IMG/VR virus record: IMGVR_UViG_2737471840_000001
Span: 1 to 15,791 of that record
Length of the DNA: 15,791 bases
Source of the DNA: a virus
Lineage: Duplodnaviria; Heunggongvirae; Uroviricota; Caudoviricetes
Reading direction: 5' to 3' (one strand)
How positions within the stretch are numbered: the stretch's first letter is position 1; every line of letters begins with the position of its first letter. Of this stretch, positions 9,100 through 14,956 are shown piece by piece. A program made the position numbers and the translations under genes. The notes under the pieces were generated by a model, which saw nothing but the letters and a program-made list of their open reading frames with translations, was not told the DNA's origin and searched no databases.

Positions 9100-9396
9100 T
9101 CACTCCTGTTCACTGGCCTCTTTGGCCATCTTCAAATACTGTTCAGGGCAATGCGCCATAACGCGCTGAAACAGTTCCAGCGCCAGATTGCGTTGCCCCT
9201 CATTAAATGCCATTGCCATAGCGTCCATCGGTGAGATAGCGGAAAACACCCGGCCTTTCTCCAGCACAGACCAGACAACGCGACGCCCCTGTTCACTGCT
9301 CATGACAAAGCGAATGTCATCAATTTCACGCTGTGCCATGTCACGTTGCTTACGGGCGTTTTCTTCTTTCAGTTGATCATCTTCGTAATCTGTCAT
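9100..9396 (-). CDS. Hypothetical protein between portal and scaffold
   Basis: 98-aa ORF, ATG at 9396 overlapping the portal stop (ATGA). Acidic, helical-looking composition. Confidence 0.5.
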   Translation of the reverse strand: MTDYEDDQLKEENARKQRDMAQREIDDIRFVMSSEQGRRVVWSVLEKGRVFSAISPMDAMAMAFNEGQRNLALELFQRVMAHCPEQYLKMAKEASEQE

Positions 9397-11072
9397 TGTG
9401 ATTGCCCACCCTGACCACTAACTGCATTCGCCATAGCTGACAAAACACTCGGATCCGAAGTTTTAGCTTCGCTTAGCGTCTTGGCACCCTGTGCCGCCGC
9501 CATCCCCATCGCCATCATTTGTTGTTGCTGTTGTTGCTGTGCCCGTTGCTGGCGAGCCTGCTCAACCTGTTCCTGCGGAACAATGACGGTTGGAGACACT
9601 CCGGACATATCAGCGAATGCATCGATCGCCTGATCAACGTTGAGTTTGTCGAGAGCTTCTGGTTTCGCTTGCGCAAGTTGACCAATGAAGTTAACCGTGG
9701 ACGCCAGACTGGACAGGCCGATAGACTTCTGCGCCTGAGCCATGACAGAAATGTATTCGACCTTCAGGGGCATACCTTCCATCGCGTCAGGCGGTGGCGG
9801 CAGCATGTTTTTACGCACCATCATCGAGAAAGCGCGGTCAATGAGAGGATTAAGACATTCGTCGTTCAGACGCTCCAGAACCGGCCCCAACATCAGAAGT
9901 TTTTCTTCTTTCATTTCGATCACCGCTTCAACAGGCATCGAGCGGGTATTGATGTTCTGCAACATCATGAACAGATCGACAAAGTAGGCGCTGTTAATGA
10001 TTTGGCGGGTGTCCTGAATGTCTGCTACCAGATCTGCTGTACTGGGGTTAACCAGATAAGCAGGCCTGAAACCATCCTGACCAGTAATCTGATCGATATA
10101 CGTGATGTCGCCAGGAAGAAGGGAGGCGCGCTGATTCTTGAGGGAAGTCGGAGCAACCATCGGCGGATTGGTGGCTTTATCAATCAACTGCGACTTGCGC
10201 TTCTGGAGAAGCTGCAGTGCCTTAACAGGTCCAAGCGCCAGCATACCCGGGCATGATGATCCATAAACATCTTCGCCGTTAACTTCCCAGCGCGGAGCCA
10301 TAATTGGAAACTCATCGAATCCGGACTCACGCAACAACTTGTCGTTATCGCCACCAACCTCGTAATAAACCGATTTGAATGGCTTGTTCTTGCTATCCAG
10401 CTTCGATGTATCGCGGTCAATGTTCGGGTAAACCGAATGCATCACTTCAATCCACTTCTCGTAGGTGCCGCTTTCCCACATGCTTTTTACGGATTCGCTG
10501 ACGTTATTTAGCCCGAACTCCTGAACAAGCTGACGAACAGTCATAGAGAACTTGCGAAAACAGGTGTCCACACTGCCACGAGGTGAGTTAGCCAGGTAGT
10601 AACTGCCTATCGGGAATGGCATTGTGCGAATGATGTCCTCGTCATCCTCCAGCACTGCCATTGCACCAGTGCTGTATGTGCCGAGGCTTCCGTATAACTG
10701 CGGCAGAGACTGATAGAGATTCGACTTATTGAACATATCGTTCATGCGGTTCTGCACCGCCTCAAGCCACAACTTAACAGGGCCATAATCCATCATTTCA
10801 GGATCTGGCGTAGCCAGGCGAAACCACGGACGCGCGGGGCTTGTGATGCCTGACATCATGCCGCTGGCGAGAGTGCGCGCCGCCATAGTCCCGGTCGAAT
10901 CAATAATGCGTGTATTGCGTCGATCGTTACGGTTGACCTCTGAAGTCAGAAAGCGGGAACCACGCGGGTTGATGTAATCACTCAACTCGCGCCAGTGCGG
11001 CTCGAACGACTGACGCTCGCTTTCAAGTTGTGCGAACTGTTTGTTCAATCGCTCTTTAGTTGTTTCCGCCAT
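9393..11072 (-). CDS. Portal (head-to-tail connector) protein, T7 gp8-like
   Basis: 559-aa ORF immediately downstream of the terminase region. Gln/Ala/Met-rich C-terminal tail (QQRAQQQQQQQMMAMGMAAAQG...) resembles T7-type connectors as I recall them. ATG at 11072 with GGAG RBS. Confidence 0.75.
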   Translation of the reverse strand: MAETTKERLNKQFAQLESERQSFEPHWRELSDYINPRGSRFLTSEVNRNDRRNTRIIDSTGTMAARTLASGMMSGITSPARPWFRLATPDPEMMDYGPVKLWLEAVQNRMNDMFNKSNLYQSLPQLYGSLGTYSTGAMAVLEDDEDIIRTMPFPIGSYYLANSPRGSVDTCFRKFSMTVRQLVQEFGLNNVSESVKSMWESGTYEKWIEVMHSVYPNIDRDTSKLDSKNKPFKSVYYEVGGDNDKLLRESGFDEFPIMAPRWEVNGEDVYGSSCPGMLALGPVKALQLLQKRKSQLIDKATNPPMVAPTSLKNQRASLLPGDITYIDQITGQDGFRPAYLVNPSTADLVADIQDTRQIINSAYFVDLFMMLQNINTRSMPVEAVIEMKEEKLLMLGPVLERLNDECLNPLIDRAFSMMVRKNMLPPPPDAMEGMPLKVEYISVMAQAQKSIGLSSLASTVNFIGQLAQAKPEALDKLNVDQAIDAFADMSGVSPTVIVPQEQVEQARQQRAQQQQQQQMMAMGMAAAQGAKTLSEAKTSDPSVLSAMANAVSGQGGQSQ

Positions 11073-11315: not shown

Positions 11316-11388
11316 AAATTATTACCAATTTAACCACATATGATTTATTTATCGTAGATAGTTGACATTTAACGCACAAATTATTACC
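11316..11388. repeat. Two copies of AAATTATTACC in the AT-rich intergenic region, flanking a TTGACA hexamer
   Basis: Exact 11-bp direct repeat at 11316-11326 and 11378-11388. TTGACA at 11363-11368. Inverted repeat TTACC-N5-GGTAA at 11384-11398. Confidence 0.6.
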
Positions 11389-11439
11389 TTTCAGGTAACC
11401 AAAGAGTTCATTCCGGTTACTAACCTGACTGGCTTGTCG

Positions 11440-11721
11440 TTAAATTGAACAGGTGGAGTGAGCTTTTATTTTGAGCAGTACGGCGTATGGCACATGCGCC
11501 GATAGCGGTCTGGATACGTTTAAGGGGCACCCTCCCTTGCTCGGGCAAACGAACCAGGTAGCCGGAATGTGCAAGTCGAGCGGTTTTATTCCGCGCACGG
11601 GGATTCACCATCCCGGCGATTCGGTGTGACGCCTCGGAAGAGACGAGGGTACAACGATGAGAGCATTTATGGAGCCGCGACAAAGTGTGGCGCACTTAAC
11701 AGGCTAAGTGCTCTCAGCGTT
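11440..11721 (+). ncRNA. Candidate structured non-coding RNA or long leader upstream of tRNA-Arg
   Basis: About 280 nt of GC-rich sequence with no credible ORF on either strand. Local hairpins: TTGC-tcgg-GCAA (11537-11548), GCGG-N7-CCGC (11580-11594), GGGAT-N5-ATCCC (11600-11614), CCTCG-N7-CGAGG (11632-11648). Boundaries and strand are not determined. Confidence 0.3.
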
Positions 11722-11798
11722 GTGGCATTAGCTCAGTTGGACAGAGCAACCGCCTTCTAAGCGGTTGGTCGCAGGTTCGAATCCTGCATGCCACGCCA
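11722..11798 (+). tRNA. tRNA-Arg (anticodon UCU), argU-like, with encoded CCA
   Basis: Hand-folded cloverleaf: acceptor GTGGCAT/ATGCCAC, D-arm GCTC-AGTTGGACA-GAGC, anticodon stem ACCGC/GCGGT with loop CTTCTAA, T-arm GCAGG-TTCGAAT-CCTGC, discriminator G, CCA. Body closely resembles enterobacterial argU from memory. Confidence 0.9.
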
Positions 11799-11841
11799 GA
11801 ATCACGCCTAAGGACCGTGATGCCAGAAGTTCCAGGTGCTT

Positions 11842-11884
11842 GGCGGTGATGGTTTCCCTTGAAGGACTATCACCGCCATTTTTA
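11842..11884 (+). terminator. Intrinsic terminator downstream of tRNA-Arg
   Basis: GGCGGTGAT (11842-11850) pairs with ATCACCGCC (11869-11877), internal CCTT/AAGG pairing, followed by a run of five T (11879-11883). Confidence 0.55.
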
Positions 11885-11962
11885 CAGCAGGACGCCATTG
11901 CGATGACTTCATGCTGTAAACCAGTACAGCCACGGAAGGCATAACTCATTGCTTCCAGTTCT

Positions 11963-11986
11963 CCCGGTTCGTCCGGGCATTTTTTT
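11963..11986 (+). terminator. Intrinsic terminator-like hairpin just upstream of the 110-aa ORF RBS
   Basis: CCCGG-TTCGT-CCGGG (11963-11977), then CA and seven T (11980-11986). No U-tract on the opposite strand. Confidence 0.5.
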
Positions 11987-11998
11987 AAGGTGAAAATC

Positions 11999-12331
11999 AT
12001 GAAAGAGAAGACTGCAGCTGAGCGCTATGCCGCAGCTATCAATGCCGCGATGGCGATTGTAAACCTGCGTGAAGAGATTAAAGATCTCCTTGCAATTATC
12101 CATAACAACCTGACATGTACAGAGTTGCTTGGCGGTCAGTACAACGGTGAGGCGGTGAAGGAGGCATTTAAAAATGCCGAGGTAGGAATAATTCCAGCAA
12201 ACTATGTCAAGGCTGAATGTGTGCTCCTAAAGGCACGAGTGAGTCTGCATGAAGATCCTGGTAATCTCGGTCGAACTGCAATGCGTTACGTGATAGACGA
12301 GTCGAATGCCAAACACAATCTACCGAAATAA
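11999..12331 (+). CDS. Orphan hypothetical protein (110 aa), moron-like, opposite to the morphogenesis operon
   Basis: ATG at 11999 with AAGGTG RBS 6 nt upstream (the track start at 11990 is GTG). Product MKEKTAAERYAAAINAAMAIVNLREEIKDLL... has no recognised motif. Uses rare ATA, CTA and CGA codons and looks lower in GC than neighbours. Bracketed by terminators. Confidence 0.6.
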   Translation: MKEKTAAERYAAAINAAMAIVNLREEIKDLLAIIHNNLTCTELLGGQYNGEAVKEAFKNAEVGIIPANYVKAECVLLKARVSLHEDPGNLGRTAMRYVIDESNAKHNLPK

Positions 12332-12334
12332 CAC

Positions 12335-12348
12335 CGTGACATGTCACA
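12335..12348. repeat. CGTGACATGTCACA, copy 1 (perfect 12-bp palindrome GTGACATGTCAC inside)
   Basis: Exact 14-bp match to 14600-14613. Lies 4 nt after the stop of the 110-aa ORF and before the terminator at 12352-12380. Confidence 0.8.
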
Positions 12349-12351
12349 AAC

Positions 12352-12380
12352 AGCCAGCCTATGAGCTGGCTTTGTTTTAT
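12352..12380 (+). terminator. Intrinsic terminator after the 110-aa ORF
   Basis: AGCCAGC (12352-12358) pairs with GCTGGCT (12365-12371), loop CTATGA, then TTGTTTTAT. The opposite strand has an A-tract before the hairpin, so it is unidirectional for plus-strand transcripts. Confidence 0.6.
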
Positions 12381-12421
12381 CCTCACCAGAGGATATCAAC
12401 GACATTATCCCCACCAGCGGA

Positions 12422-13897
12422 TTAAGCATAGGGATCGTAATCTGTGATGGCCTTGCCTTGCTGGTTCTGCTGACCGGGAATTCGCAGACGCTTCGACACA
12501 GGGAACGCAAACGTCAGCAGTAGCGCATCGCCTTTACCAGGAGAACGCCCAAGTCGCTCTTTGATATCTTCCTTCGGTTCGATAACGATTTTACCGTCCA
12601 CTCGAACTTTGTACTCTGCTGCCGACAGGTCGTCCGCTGTTTCCTGGTCATCCAGCATGCCGCCCAGCCTCAGCCATGTCTTGCATGAATTGAACATCTC
12701 CCCACGCTTGTTGAGCATCTGCGGGTCAGTAGACGCGCCACCGAACGGAACAAGTTGCCATGTACGACCCCATCCGTCACCGATTGACTTCAGACCGGTT
12801 CCGTAACCGAAGTCGATGAACACCGCGTCAGCCTGATACTGGTCTTCAAAGTCAGCGATACGCTTCGCCATAATCAGATCGTCGGTAGTCTTGTTGCCAG
12901 TCCACAGCACCTTACTGTGTAGCCCCTGCCGCAGGTATATCACCGCGTCATCAACGCCTGAATATGCCGGGTCAACACCGATTATCACCGGAGCATGCGC
13001 CACCTGCGCAGCGGTTACCACCCGTTTCATTGCCTCATCAGTAAGACCGGTAGGGATAAACTGCAATTCAGATGCATCAGGGAATATGCCGCGCACACGG
13101 ATTTTAACGAAGTCGCTGTCTTCCCCGTAGTCATCAACCCATTTCTGCAACTGCTGTTTGTTAGTGCCTTCCACCGTTCGGCTGTCAATCTGCGCAGTTT
13201 TCCAGCGGTGTTTATATTTGCGGAAACATTCACGGAATCGCCCGGTATTACGCGTCGGGTTTCCGAACGCCACCCAGATAATCTCAGTGTCTTCGTCCGT
13301 TAGCGCACCTTCGGCAACTTCCCACACCAGATCCGCAATGTTCGACGCTTCATCGAATACCACGATGATGCGTTTGCGCTCGTTGTGTAGTCCGGCGAAT
13401 GCCTCAGTGTTGTGCTCAGACCAGGGGATTGCGTCAGCTCGCCACCGCTTGTCGTGCCCAGGATCATTGCTGTACATCGCGGTAGCGGTACAGGTAAACC
13501 AGTCTTTCGTGATAGCAAGGTTCGACCACTTGATAATTTCCGGCCAGGTCTTCGTTCGTAGCTGGTTGTCGGTGTTGGCGGTCACCACGACCTTACAATC
13601 CTCGCAAGTGGACATGCCCCAGTTGATCAGCATTGAGATGAATGCGGATTTACCAATACCGTGACCAGAAGCACGTGCCAGCATAAGCGGCTGATATCGC
13701 GTCTCTGGATTCTGCAGGTGATCACGTATCTCTCGGAACGCATCGGCCTGCCACTGACGTGGACCGGTGGCATGTGCCAGTTCAGTACCCTCTTCCCCCC
13801 ACGGGAACGCATAGAGGGCATAGCCAAGCGGATCGTGAGTGAACCCTGCAATATCCTCGATTAACTGCTCTTCAGGAGATAACGCTGTATCTGTCAC
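12422..13897 (-). CDS. Terminase large subunit
   Basis: 491-aa ORF with a P-loop/Walker A motif (ASGHGIGKS) near the N-terminus and an acidic nuclease-type segment (VDPAYSGVDDAVIY) in the C-terminal half. GTG start at 13897 overlapping the terminase small stop (GTGA). Confidence 0.85.
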   Translation of the reverse strand: MTDTALSPEEQLIEDIAGFTHDPLGYALYAFPWGEEGTELAHATGPRQWQADAFREIRDHLQNPETRYQPLMLARASGHGIGKSAFISMLINWGMSTCEDCKVVVTANTDNQLRTKTWPEIIKWSNLAITKDWFTCTATAMYSNDPGHDKRWRADAIPWSEHNTEAFAGLHNERKRIIVVFDEASNIADLVWEVAEGALTDEDTEIIWVAFGNPTRNTGRFRECFRKYKHRWKTAQIDSRTVEGTNKQQLQKWVDDYGEDSDFVKIRVRGIFPDASELQFIPTGLTDEAMKRVVTAAQVAHAPVIIGVDPAYSGVDDAVIYLRQGLHSKVLWTGNKTTDDLIMAKRIADFEDQYQADAVFIDFGYGTGLKSIGDGWGRTWQLVPFGGASTDPQMLNKRGEMFNSCKTWLRLGGMLDDQETADDLSAAEYKVRVDGKIVIEPKEDIKERLGRSPGKGDALLLTFAFPVSKRLRIPGQQNQQGKAITDYDPYA

Positions 13898-14490
13898 TGA
13901 TTGCCATCCTGACGTTCTTTCAGTCTCTTCCTGGCTGCCGCTATGCGATCAGCAATTGTCACATTCACATTAACATCCAGGCGTTCTTTGAATGCGTTGA
14001 CGTCGACGTGCTTACCAATCAGTTCGAGGTTCTTCACCTTGTCAGGCCATTTAATTTTTTTGAGGATTGTCTCTATCGAATCCTCGTTCATGTTCATGAT
14101 GGTCGATGACAGATCAAAGCCACTAAGCGTAGTGCGCCAGATTTTCGGCCACTCGCGGATTGGCTTAAGACTCCCATCGTCGTTGAGGATATCAATCACG
14201 TCCATCTGGTCGATCTCCACCAGGCGCATGAGAACGTAATCAGCACTGACGCGCATTCGTTTGTTGCGCTCCTCCATCAACTCGGCAATCCGTTTTTGAA
14301 TGCGTTCATCACGCATCATGACACTGGCTTTAACTGCCGCTGTATTTGGGGAGAATCCTGCGTTAATCGCTGCCTGAGTCTGGTTTTCAGGCGTTTTGAT
14401 GTATGACTGGCAATAAGCCTCCTGCATTGCTGTTAGTGGCTTAAATTGCGTTGATTTGCGTTTATAGGTTTTAGGTTCAGCAGGCATCAT
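13894..14490 (-). CDS. Terminase small subunit (Terminase_2-like)
   Basis: Conserved N-terminal signature LTAMQEAYCQSYIKTPENQTQAAINAGFS fits the Terminase_2 family pattern as I recall it. Start moved from the track's 14568 to the internal ATG at 14490 (MMPAEPK...) because a terminator hairpin and tandem repeats occupy 14498-14561. Confidence 0.7.
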   Translation of the reverse strand: MMPAEPKTYKRKSTQFKPLTAMQEAYCQSYIKTPENQTQAAINAGFSPNTAAVKASVMMRDERIQKRIAELMEERNKRMRVSADYVLMRLVEIDQMDVIDILNDDGSLKPIREWPKIWRTTLSGFDLSSTIMNMNEDSIETILKKIKWPDKVKNLELIGKHVDVNAFKERLDVNVNVTIADRIAAARKRLKERQDGNQ

Positions 14491-14497
14491 AACCACC

Positions 14498-14529
14498 GTG
14501 GTAATAGTTACCGTTGTGGTAATAGTACC
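14498..14529. repeat. Tandem imperfect repeat GTGGTAATAGTTACC / GTGGTAATAGTACC, each internally palindromic
   Basis: Copies at 14498-14512 and 14516-14529, separated by GTT. Located between the terminator hairpin and the terminase small start. A possible extended -10 element (TGGTACTAT on the minus strand, plus coordinates 14522-14530) overlaps copy 2. Confidence 0.6.
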
Positions 14530-14530
14530 A

Positions 14531-14561
14531 TGCAAAATAAAGCCGCCATAGTTGGCGGCAG
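14531..14561 (-). terminator. Intrinsic terminator upstream of the terminase genes
   Basis: Minus strand reads CTGCCGCC-AACTAT-GGCGGC followed by TTTATTTTG; plus-strand stem at 14542-14547 and 14554-14559. Confidence 0.5.
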
Positions 14562-14599
14562 TATTCAAAACCCATCAAATTCATCATGCATAATCTACT

Positions 14600-14613
14600 C
14601 GTGACATGTCACA
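14600..14613. repeat. CGTGACATGTCACA, copy 2
   Basis: Exact 14-bp match to 12335-12348. Overlaps the stop codon of the 115-aa minus-strand ORF and lies just upstream, in the minus-strand sense, of the terminator at 14531-14561. Confidence 0.8.
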
Positions 14614-14956
14614 CTATTAATTTCGTTTCATGCCAGCCTTTAGTCACCCAGCATTGCGAGTCACCATTACACGGGCATGAATTCACAGGAACTCTCTCGC
14701 CGCACTTACCGCAACGTTTTCTGCTGATCGATTTTATACGCCCGCGCACGCGTGCATCATCCTGGCGGATCAGTAACGCTATATACTCACCAAATTCGTA
14801 AGGCGCACGCCCGGGGCGACGTGTGGCACAGTTACGCTCCAGCATTTCAATTTCCTGAGCATCAAGCACAATCTCCAGCTTACGTACACCGGATTCAGCT
14901 TGTCTGGCTCTCTGAGCGGCTTTGCGTTCTGCGGGGGATTTAGCCACGAATCGCAC
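14609..14956 (-). CDS. Hypothetical protein with basic N-terminus and C-terminal cysteine cluster (possible zinc-ribbon or nucleic-acid-binding protein)
   Basis: 115-aa ORF with no ATG; GTG at 14956 or 14947, the latter with GGAG 8 nt upstream. C-terminus CGKCGERVPVNSCPCNGDSQC. Function unknown. Confidence 0.45.
   Translation of the reverse strand: MRFVAKSPAERKAAQRARQAESGVRKLEIVLDAQEIEMLERNCATRRPGRAPYEFGEYIALLIRQDDARVRGRIKSISRKRCGKCGERVPVNSCPCNGDSQCWVTKGWHETKLIV

Follow-up and report, generated by a model that had tools for sequence, protein, structure and literature searches.

What is the function of an identical, perfectly palindromic element that stands on either side of the terminase genes of a tailed phage? 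The window analysed here (the whole stretch of viral DNA, 15,791 nucleotides) belongs to a phiV10/epsilon15-like (Uetakevirus) E. coli phage and carries exact copies of CGTGACATGTCACA at positions 12335-12348 and 14600-14613, with the perfect palindrome GTGACATGTCAC as the core of both (12336-12347 and 14601-14612). A sequence-only reading had described this pair of 14-mers with its 12-bp palindrome and had placed it around the terminase genes, and both descriptions stand: the copies flank terS and terL, which lie together on the minus strand. With up to two mismatches allowed, CGTGACATGTCACA has five matches in the window against 0.16 expected, a count that none of 200 dinucleotide shuffles reached. 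One of the five, a copy with a single mismatch at 9332-9345, lies within a coding ORF and is probably non-functional, because one of its half-sites is broken and it has no counterpart at the homologous place in epsilon15. We refer to the two exact copies as the TerL-side and the TerS-side copy; the features around them are as follows.

11963-11998, plus strand: conserved 5' border of the slot for cargo, formed by a hairpin and a T-run with the RBS AAGGTGAAAATC ahead of the ATG
11999-12331, plus strand: variable cargo (moron) gene, 110 aa, PHROG 27507, with its stop codon 4 nt before the TerL-side copy
12335-12348, no strand: TerL-side copy (copy 1), between the cargo-gene stop codon and the bidirectional terminator 3' of terL
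12352-12381, plus strand: intrinsic terminator common to the convergent cargo gene and terL, a hairpin (12352-12371) and then TTGTTTTAT
12422-13897, minus strand: large terminase subunit (terL)
13894-14490, minus strand: small terminase subunit (terS), Pfam Terminase_2, E = 1e-29
14534-14559, minus strand: intrinsic terminator between the TerS-side copy and terS, GCCGCCAACTATGGCGGC and then TTTATTTT
14565-14591, minus strand: tiny ORF MHDEFDGF*, what is left of the 3' end of a cargo gene of ~70 aa (PHROG 1541)
14600-14613, no strand: TerS-side copy (copy 2), upstream of terS and overlapping the TGA stop that ends the gp49-family gene
14609-14947, minus strand: gp49-family gene, 112 aa, predicted ribbon-helix-helix (RHH) DNA-binding protein and candidate palindrome-binding factor

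The same early reading had each copy lying at a stop codon and just before an intrinsic terminator. For the TerL-side copy this holds in full, as the palindrome begins 4 nt past the TAA stop (12329-12331) of the plus-strand ORF and is followed after a gap of 4 nt by the terminator hairpin. The TGA stop (14611-14609) of the minus-strand ORF falls within the TerS-side copy, but here the terminator part of the description does not hold: the same-strand terminator (14559-14542), the counterpart of which is annotated as rho-independent in the epsilon15 record, lies 41 nt further on, with the 27-nt tiny ORF in between. By comparison with the annotations of epsilon15 and TL-2011b, the start of terS is the ATG at 14490 or 14487, and the TTG-extended terS ORF, which reaches to 14568, is probably unused.

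The neighbouring, separate hairpins are the real terminators, and the palindrome has neither the stable GC-rich hairpin nor the U-tract of one. It could nevertheless act in RNA, as a 3' UTR hairpin or protein-binding motif upstream of terminators that serves processing, stability or termination control. In Uetakeviruses, transcription of at least one strand reads each copy shortly before it reaches an intrinsic terminator; minimum free energy folds put the palindrome in a 4-bp hairpin; and the two stem variants seen, GTGACATGTTAC and GTGACATGCCAC, would be G-U compatible on the transcribed strand. However, the hairpin formed by the palindrome alone is marginal (-1.2 kcal/mol, z ~ 0), the half-site sequence is invariant with no stem covariation, no Rfam family matches, and the sites occur in both orientations relative to transcription and within genes on both strands, so that we consider an RNA-level element quite improbable.

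Further copies, which had been suggested as something to look for, were found at homologous places in epsilon15, phiV10 and close relatives. Epsilon15 carries three exact copies of GTGACATGTCAC at three homologous operon ends associated with terminators, and phiV10 has two exact copies and, at the third of the same three places, a variant that differs by one transition (GTGACATGTTAC). The third copy of phages of this type is at the end of the tail operon, ~17 kb away and outside the window; there, too, relatives differ in the gene that immediately precedes the motif. Between the window and epsilon15, sequence identity around the window's own two copies is only ~80%. Among 80 close relatives, the TerS-side copy is kept in 79 and the TerL-side copy in 66; phiV10 and epsilon15, too, have the TerL-side copy at the corresponding position. 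About 10 of the 80 lack the TerL-side copy altogether, and it is therefore dispensable.

The gene that ends within the TerS-side copy belongs to the epsilon15 gp49 family (PHROG 536), which comprises about 930 clusters at 90% identity and 221 at 50%. An AlphaFold model of the protein resembles RHH DNA-binding proteins, and we predict on this basis that the family belongs to that fold class. The structure models are monomers, the first AF2 model (pLDDT 56) was too poor for use, and a Foldseek search of the PDB was uninformative. Comparisons with Pfam, NCBIfam and the PDB (phmmer and profile) and with RHH proteins (hhalign) gave no match, and membership of the described RHH families was not found by sequence. 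The protein has two additional parts, a conserved N-terminal basic helix (RK..QR.R) and a Cys-rich C-terminal tail (CxxC...CxC...C).

The site and this gene family occur together well beyond the relatives of the window. The gp49 stop codon could be examined at 24 loci, all from different species; GTGAC-NN-GTCAC overlaps or abuts it at 20 of them and lies 81-205 nt downstream at two more. No site was found near the gp49 homologues at loci L209 and L218 or near a partial Aeromonas homologue. A site also overlaps or adjoins the gp49 stop codon in the myovirus ZF40, in a P2-like Yersinia phage and in the N15-like phage phiKO2, while in the siphovirus Vibrio phage K303 it lies 226 nt downstream of the gp49 homologue, so that the linkage extends over at least five phage backbones. 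Six whole genomes with a gp49 homologue contain 15 GTGAC-NN-GTCAC sites against 0.23 expected (about 60-fold; Poisson P ~ 2e-22), at 1-3 copies per ~40 kb. All 15 have a spacer of 2 bp and invariant half-sites, whereas spacers of 0, 1 and 3-7 bp together gave one site against ~1.6 expected (the single 3-bp case, in K303, is not linked to a gene) and the everted order occurred once in total.

Where the sites lie relative to terminators, promoters and genes depends on the lineage. Some fall within coding regions of ZF40 (gp08 and gp12) and phiKO2 (repA), precede an SD sequence in phiKO2, or stand 19 nt ahead of start codons in Vibrio phage K303. One of these K303 sites is upstream of terS, and two copies bracket terS and terL in the window, as might be expected if the terminase that they flank recognised the sites for packaging (as pac sites), a relation to packaging that had also been raised from the window alone. 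This account can be set aside as very improbable: a pac site is unique and lies in or near terS, whereas phages of the window's type have three copies per genome, one of them at the distant end of the tail operon; the TerL-side copy is not found in all close relatives; neither ZF40 nor phiKO2 has a copy close to its terminase genes; and the site is present in the P2-like Yersinia phage, one of a group that uses cos sites for packaging, where it adjoins gpA at a long distance from the terminase genes.

While the half-sites and the N-terminal basic helix of gp49 are constant, the central dinucleotide of the site varies, and it is lineage-specific and largely concerted within a genome. The centre is AT in 15 loci of the enterobacterial clade (which has four single variants) and in ZF40, GC in all six loci of the Yersinia-type clade, TG in phiKO2, and AC twice and GC once in Vibrio K303. 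Over about four independent lineages, these centres parallel the sequence of the predicted beta-strand of the protein (RKLELVLD / NEIRARLE / TRRDWVLE / QELRLKVS). The TG centre makes the phiKO2 site asymmetric, and the same 12-mer is used at all three sites in either orientation, which fits recognition of double-stranded DNA and is a further point against an element read in RNA.

The half-sites GTGAC and GTCAC are, inverted and base for base, those of matS (PMC6907758), the consensus of which is a 13-mer with a 3-bp spacer, GTGAC-RNY-GTCAC (PMC6907758), and which is read by the host protein MatP via its RHH together with helical elements (PMC6538776). The phage sites could accordingly be matS-like sites bound by host MatP, alone or alongside gp49, an arrangement that would tie the phage or prophage to the Ter-organising, MukBEF-excluding system. 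Several differences leave this reading with little probability. The phage site is a 12-mer, its 2-bp spacer was without exception among the 15 sites and was never the 3 bp of matS, and the palindromes are phage-borne, at few copies per genome. Furthermore, the lineage-specific centres track the phage protein and not the host. The gp49 model does align to the MatP-matS structure over 76 residues, with a resemblance at the level of the RHH fold only; gp49 is without the first three helices and the coiled coil of MatP, hhalign gives the two a probability of 0.15% (no detectable homology), and an exhaustive search with the gp49 profile returned no MatP-family protein among 150 listed of the 221 representatives.

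The two copies in the window also mark places where related phages part company. In 62 of 66 close relatives homology to the window stops 0-10 nt beyond the TerL-side copy, and in 21 of 79 it stops directly after the TerS-side copy, where a ~70-aa cargo gene (PHROG 1541) follows at once in 21 of 79; boundaries of divergence, the comparison of which with the sites had been proposed as a check, thus coincide sharply with them. The PHROG 27507 cassette of the window is found in only four of the 66 relatives, and at least seven unrelated cassettes abut the same TerL-side palindrome, with the stop codon of every cassette exactly 4 nt ahead of it. The flank with the terminator varies independently of the flank with the cassette, two terminator types being combined with at least seven cassette families. 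At one locus (L034) two cassettes stand in tandem with one motif copy each, and the 5' boundary of the cargo slot recurs both there and in epsilon15.

Taken by themselves, these patterns would suit a recombination linker or cassette junction, a short stretch plus its terminator where cargo ORFs are swapped by homologous or site-specific recombination. Such a junction would owe its conservation to the mechanism of exchange and not to regulation, and the gp49 homologue of the P2-like phage lies at the edge of a variable hotspot of P2. However, a 12-bp stretch offers very little length for homologous exchange, no dedicated recombinase accompanies it, the motif usually stands at one end only of each cassette, and it is also found within the conserved genes gp08 and gp12 of ZF40 and repA of phiKO2, where no cassette exchange is seen. 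A linker alone would moreover leave unexplained the invariant half-sites, the concerted centre of each lineage and the linkage to one protein family, and we regard it as unlikely. The earlier proposal that the copies are scars of modular exchange bracketing the terminase block is right about the breakpoints and wrong about what varies, since the exchanged units are cargo outside the terminase pair. On our reading the motif has been conserved for a function and is no scar, and it marks mosaic breakpoints because such an element lies at a permissive junction.

We propose that GTGAC-NN-GTCAC is the putative operator of a gp49-family RHH regulator at operon and cargo junctions, a reading to which we give a probability of roughly 0.6. 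The palindrome is most likely the docking site of the gp49-family protein because both travel together through many unrelated phages. That it is the binding site of a dimeric protein, one of the possibilities raised at the outset, has become the best-supported account, given the invariant half-sites, the fixed spacer, the enrichment and the gene linkage. A gp49 dimer would sit on the dyad of the palindrome, with the N-terminal basic helix reading the invariant GTGAC half-sites and the RHH beta-ribbon reading the variable central base pairs. In phages of the phiV10/epsilon15 type, the three copies lie beside intrinsic terminators where the early-right operon finishes ahead of terS, where terL ends and where the tail operon ends, with cargo genes gained, lost and swapped at the first two, which are the window's own copies. 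The protein-bound palindrome could then serve as a boundary or roadblock-type regulatory site that reinforces or modulates transcription over the junctions, and with it the entry of transcription into the terminase operon.

An operator of this kind would differ from those of the described RHH repressors (P22 Arc and Mnt, CopG, MetJ, omega of pSM19035, TacA and ParD), which lie over promoters, whereas the phage palindrome lies at the 3' ends of genes, at terminators and within genes; gp49 in turn has the extra N-terminal helix and C-terminal Cys cluster, which set it apart from these proteins. For palindromes beside terminators, the working model is the stopped elongation brought about at stoperators. 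Stoperators are asymmetric 13-mers, bound by a monomeric immunity repressor, and a genome has tens of them, all running in the direction of transcription. In cluster A mycobacteriophages (L5 gp71-type) they are scattered sites off promoters at which the bound protein stops elongating RNA polymerase (PMC9283540, PMC6550527), with asymmetric recognition and numerous binding sites (PMC9283540). The site described here is instead a palindrome at one to three copies per genome, and the immunity-repressor motif annotated in phages of the window's type is not the palindrome but ATTACC-N5-GGTAAT. As with the palindrome, a short motif and a terminator stand next to variable ORFs and at breakpoints of insertion, replacement and loss in the promoter/stem-loop (PeSL) cassettes of T4-type phages (PMC2839356, PMC4122927), in lambdoid boundary sequences and in morons, and the tandem cassettes of L034 recall a PeSL array. 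The palindrome differs from PeSL, a promoter and stem-loop unit found at both ends of variable ORFs, in having no convincing promoter, in its position on one side of the cassette, in its link to the gene of a specific trans-acting protein and in its occurrence within conserved genes.

If the operator reading is correct, gp49 and its site form an undescribed regulator/operator pair common to podo-, myo- and siphoviruses of Enterobacterales and Vibrio, with sites at operon ends and terminators, not promoters; in the lineage of the window, two or more of these places are also cargo slots. The pair would offer a handle on the poorly understood partition of early, terminase, structural and cargo transcription in phiV10/epsilon15-type phages, a sequence landmark for cargo or moron hotspots in prophages, and a natural experiment on RHH specificity, with matS half-sites at a different spacing. 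A more speculative and rather unlikely extension is that gp49 and GTGAC-NN-GTCAC make up a portable boundary system, in which a MatP-like RHH protein clamps (perhaps bridges) matS-like sites, insulates transcription units and defines slots for the exchange of cargo or defence genes. Because the half-sites equal those of matS, such a system might interfere with or exploit the MatP/MukBEF machinery that organises the host chromosome. A full-text literature search for the 12-mer returned no paper.

Several other candidates were considered and rejected. The 'repressor' protein_bind features near terS in the epsilon15 GenBank entry are a different motif (the ATTACC-N5-GGTAAT given above). The sequence record of phiV10 begins halfway through the palindrome, which hinted at a physical genome end, but it had simply been cut open right after the stop codon of the last gene. 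A promoter with GTGACA as its -35 element amounts to one weak 9/12 match that is not kept in relatives. Integron attC sites are imperfect palindromes of 57-141 bp with R and L boxes and IntI, against a perfect palindrome of 12 bp here, and the annotated genomes have no IntI-type gene near it. Sites of SlmA and CRP/FNR resemble the palindrome, but their spacing or centre does not fit. Finally, arrays of a CGTGAC half-site on high-GC viral contigs were rejected as a related iteron system; these arrays are probably origin iterons of their own, because the contigs have no gp49 homologue and the arrays are located at what we take to be a DUF1376-like replication gene.

Scanning the window confirmed the identical 14-bp pair proposed by the sequence-only reading: exact copies of CGTGACATGTCACA lie at 12335-12348 and 14600-14613, and their 12-bp core, GTGACATGTCAC, is a perfect palindrome. 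Allowing up to two mismatches to CGTGACATGTCACA gave five matches against 0.16 expected, and none of 200 shuffles had as many. The window comes from a Uetakevirus-type E. coli phage or prophage resembling phiV10 and epsilon15, with late genes on the minus strand:

11999-12331, plus strand: cargo ORF; its TAA stop is followed by 4 nt, then the TerL-side palindrome
12352-12371: terminator hairpin, 4 nt beyond the TerL-side copy
12422-13897, minus strand: terL, between the two copies
13894-14490, minus strand: terS, between the two copies
14559-14542, minus strand: terminator, 41 nt past the TerS-side copy, with a 27-nt tiny ORF between
14609-14947, minus strand: gp49-family ORF, its TGA stop inside the TerS-side copy

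A one-mismatch copy, GTGACATGGCAC (minus strand, 9332-9345), has one half-site broken and lies within a gp5-like ORF; it is kept in phiV10 and in the close relatives with loci extending that far (35 of the 80), is not found in epsilon15, and is probably a coding coincidence.

The search of phage genomes and relatives that the sequence-only reading had proposed yielded more copies, at three homologous places in epsilon15 and phiV10:

between terL and a convergent gene, adjoining a shared terminator
at about 19.5 kb, past the last tail gene, 1-2 nt ahead of an annotated terminator
where the last early-right gene (gp49 / PhiV10p55) has its stop codon, ahead of the terminator preceding terS

Epsilon15 has the exact 12-mer at all three, and phiV10 at two with GTGACATGTTAC at the third. 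This last copy is easily overlooked because the phiV10 GenBank record (L004) opens mid-palindrome, just past the last gene's stop codon, splitting it over the record ends (39101-39104 and 1-8). Around its two copies, the window shares only ∼80% identity with epsilon15. Among 80 IMG/VR loci with TerL 99-100% identical, the TerS-side copy was present in 79 and the TerL-side copy in 66; the latter is wholly missing from about 10 of the 80 and is therefore dispensable. By this sequence comparison, the palindrome is a conserved element rather than a coincidence.

The ORF ending inside the TerS-side copy encodes an epsilon15 gp49-family protein of 112 aa (PHROG 536, 'transcriptional regulator', E = 5e-54); sequence searches of Pfam, NCBIfam and PDB found no match. 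Scanning one genome from each species with a profile gave 25 loci, 24 with an examinable gene end and one partial match. GTGAC-NN-GTCAC overlaps the stop codon or lies at most ∼10 nt past it in 20 of the 24, and 81-205 nt downstream in two more. Judged from these loci, the palindrome travels with this one gene, also in unrelated phage backbones:

ZF40 (myovirus): TAA-tt-TGTGACATGTCACA at the gene end; 3 sites
Yersinia vB_YenM_201.16 (P2-like): stop codon within GTGACGCGTCAC, the gene following gpA, at the edge of a hotspot that is variable in P2; 1 site and a degenerate neighbour
phiKO2 (N15-like): stop codon within CGTGACTGGTCACG; 3 sites
Vibrio K303 (siphovirus): GTGACACGTCAC, 226 nt downstream of the gene; 3 sites

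With epsilon15 (3 sites) and phiV10 (2 sites and one half-site variant), the six gene-carrying whole genomes hold 15 sites, 1-3 per genome, where 0.23 were expected (P ∼ 2e-22). Practically no spacer other than 2 bp is used: 0, 1 and 3-7 bp gave a single site between them, with 1.6 expected, and half-sites in everted order turned up once. Extra copies in ZF40 (L236; 5125 and 7622) flank the cI/cro/cII immunity region, falling within gp08 and a cII-like gene, and those in phiKO2 (L238; 31182 and 36062) lie in the antirepressor operon leader (gp30-icd-antA-antB) and the 5' part of repA, positions that hint at regulon targets. High-GC viral contigs (L104 ∼10765-10900, L152 ∼1890-1960, L123, L133) carry dense (C)GTGAC / GTCAC(G) half-site arrays around one GTGACATGTCAC, in or beside what we take, by eye, to be a DUF1376-type replication gene; since these contigs have no gp49 homologue, we set the arrays aside as the probable origin iterons of some other, unrelated system.

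The half-sites are constant across the lineages compared, while the central dinucleotide differs from lineage to lineage and is largely shared by the copies in one genome:

Central dinucleotide and predicted beta-strand of the gp49-family protein
Enterobacterial clade and ZF40: AT (15 loci and ZF40; 4 single variants); RKLELVLD type
Yersinia-type clade: GC (6/6); NEIRARLE
phiKO2: TG, one 12-mer shared by all three sites in both orientations; TRRDWVLE
Vibrio K303: AC twice, GC once; QELRLKVS

The N-terminal basic helix of the protein, RK..QR.R, is invariant to the same degree as the half-sites, and protein and site appear to co-evolve. The C-terminal third has conserved cysteines (CxxC...CxC...C); an AlphaFold2 model from a more diverse alignment reached pLDDT 70 (∼80 for two core helices). 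The family is compact, with 221 representatives at 50% identity among 1.84 billion proteins.

The palindrome is best explained as the operator of this predicted ribbon-helix-helix (RHH) protein. A dimeric protein-binding site, suggested from the sequence at the outset, is the best supported of the early ideas, given the gene linkage, the half-sites and the fixed spacer. An RNA element would account less well for linkage to the gene and for centres that differ between lineages; the serving of one asymmetric 12-mer in both orientations (phiKO2), sites inside genes on either strand (ZF40, phiKO2) and a marginal RNA hairpin (-1.2 kcal/mol, z ∼ 0) argue for recognition as double-stranded DNA. The half-sites are identical to those of the MatP site, GTGAC-RNY-GTCAC (PMC6907758), whose centre is one base pair longer, and MatP reads matS by a helical bundle and RHH (PMC6538776). 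A host MatP site nevertheless fits the same two observations less well than an operator. The gp49 family has no detectable sequence homology to MatP and a 3-bp spacer replaces the 2-bp one at none of the 15 sites in six genomes, so matS is a resemblance, not membership, possibly convergent or very remote.

Divergence boundaries between related phages, which had been proposed for comparison with the sites, coincide with them: at the TerL-side copy, homology to the window ends 0-10 nt past the palindrome in 62 of 66 relatives, the terminator flank being at least 80% identical in 60 and the opposite flank in only four. Seven or more unrelated cargo genes are found directly beside this 12-mer. The cassettes occur in free combination with two types of terminator, and one locus (L034) has two tandem cassettes with one palindrome copy each. 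A modular-exchange boundary is right as a description, but the variable units are cargo outside the terminase pair. A recombination linker explains gene linkage and centres less well than an operator; on the operator reading, breakpoints would coincide with the palindrome because a conserved functional element sits at junctions that tolerate exchange, much like the PeSLs of T4-type phages (PMC2839356, PMC4122927). In all unrelated TerL-side cassettes, exactly 4 nt separate the stop codon from the palindrome that follows (window 12329-12335; L006-L085, L206-L215; TAA-CACC, TAA-CGCC, TAG-CTCT, TGA-TGTC and others); the tail-operon site shows no such fixed distance (stop within the motif, +1, +3, +7).

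In 21 of 79 relatives the TerS-side palindrome is followed directly by a gene of ∼70 aa (PHROG 1541), of which the window retains the last eight codons (MHDEFDGF*, 14591-14565, minus strand), between palindrome and terminator; the intact product ends ...FYDEFDGL*. Near-identical tiny ORFs occur just ahead of the TerL-side copy elsewhere (MKYEFDGF*; MKDEFDRF* in epsilon15), some overlapping the preceding stop as ATGA. In other species, LexA-box promoters, e.g. TACTGTATATTTAAACAGTA, begin a few to ∼100 nt past the gp49-linked palindrome (L206, L207, L214, L087, L105, L116; L231 7400-7500) and, as predicted from sequence, drive umuD-like or other small cargo, placing SOS-controlled cargo at the junction. 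Between terL and the portal operon, the cargo slot (11400-11980, plus strand) also carries tRNA-Arg(UCU) (11722-11798), the only Rfam match there, a 15-bp-stem hairpin with T-run (11841-11878) and a structured-looking stretch (∼11440-11700) whose epsilon15 homologue is annotated as an RNase III site.

RHH proteins are for the most part repressors. In the window lineage the sites adjoin terminators at three operon ends, and cargo varies at two or more junctions, including those flanking the terminase genes. We infer that gp49 binding would serve a boundary function; most economically, a protein-reinforced roadblock or insulator would modulate transcription entering terS-terL from the early operon, entering terL from the cargo genes and leaving the tail operon. 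Such a boundary would act like mycobacteriophage stoperators (PMC9283540), although the palindrome lacks their defining features. A pac site again explains linkage and centres less well than an operator, and the suggested relation to packaging found no support. In two loci (L208, Citrobacter braakii; L223, Pseudescherichia vulneris) the terL match begins ∼1.2 kb past the terS end, suggesting an insertion or divergent N-terminal part. Phage regulators with operators are a known kind; unusual here are the placement and the likeness to matS. We found no earlier description of the motif or regulon, and a full-text literature search for the 12-mer returned nothing.

The epsilon15 record annotates 'repressor' sites of another motif, ATTACC-N5-GGTAAT, found in the window at 11384-98 and 14508-22. 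The shorter TTACC-N5-GGTAA (epsilon15-type immunity-repressor operator) matches at 11384-11398, 14508-14522 and 14490-14504 (three against 0.16 expected), immediately ahead of terS and the gp3/portal operon, which suggests that the late operons are repressed directly by the prophage repressor.
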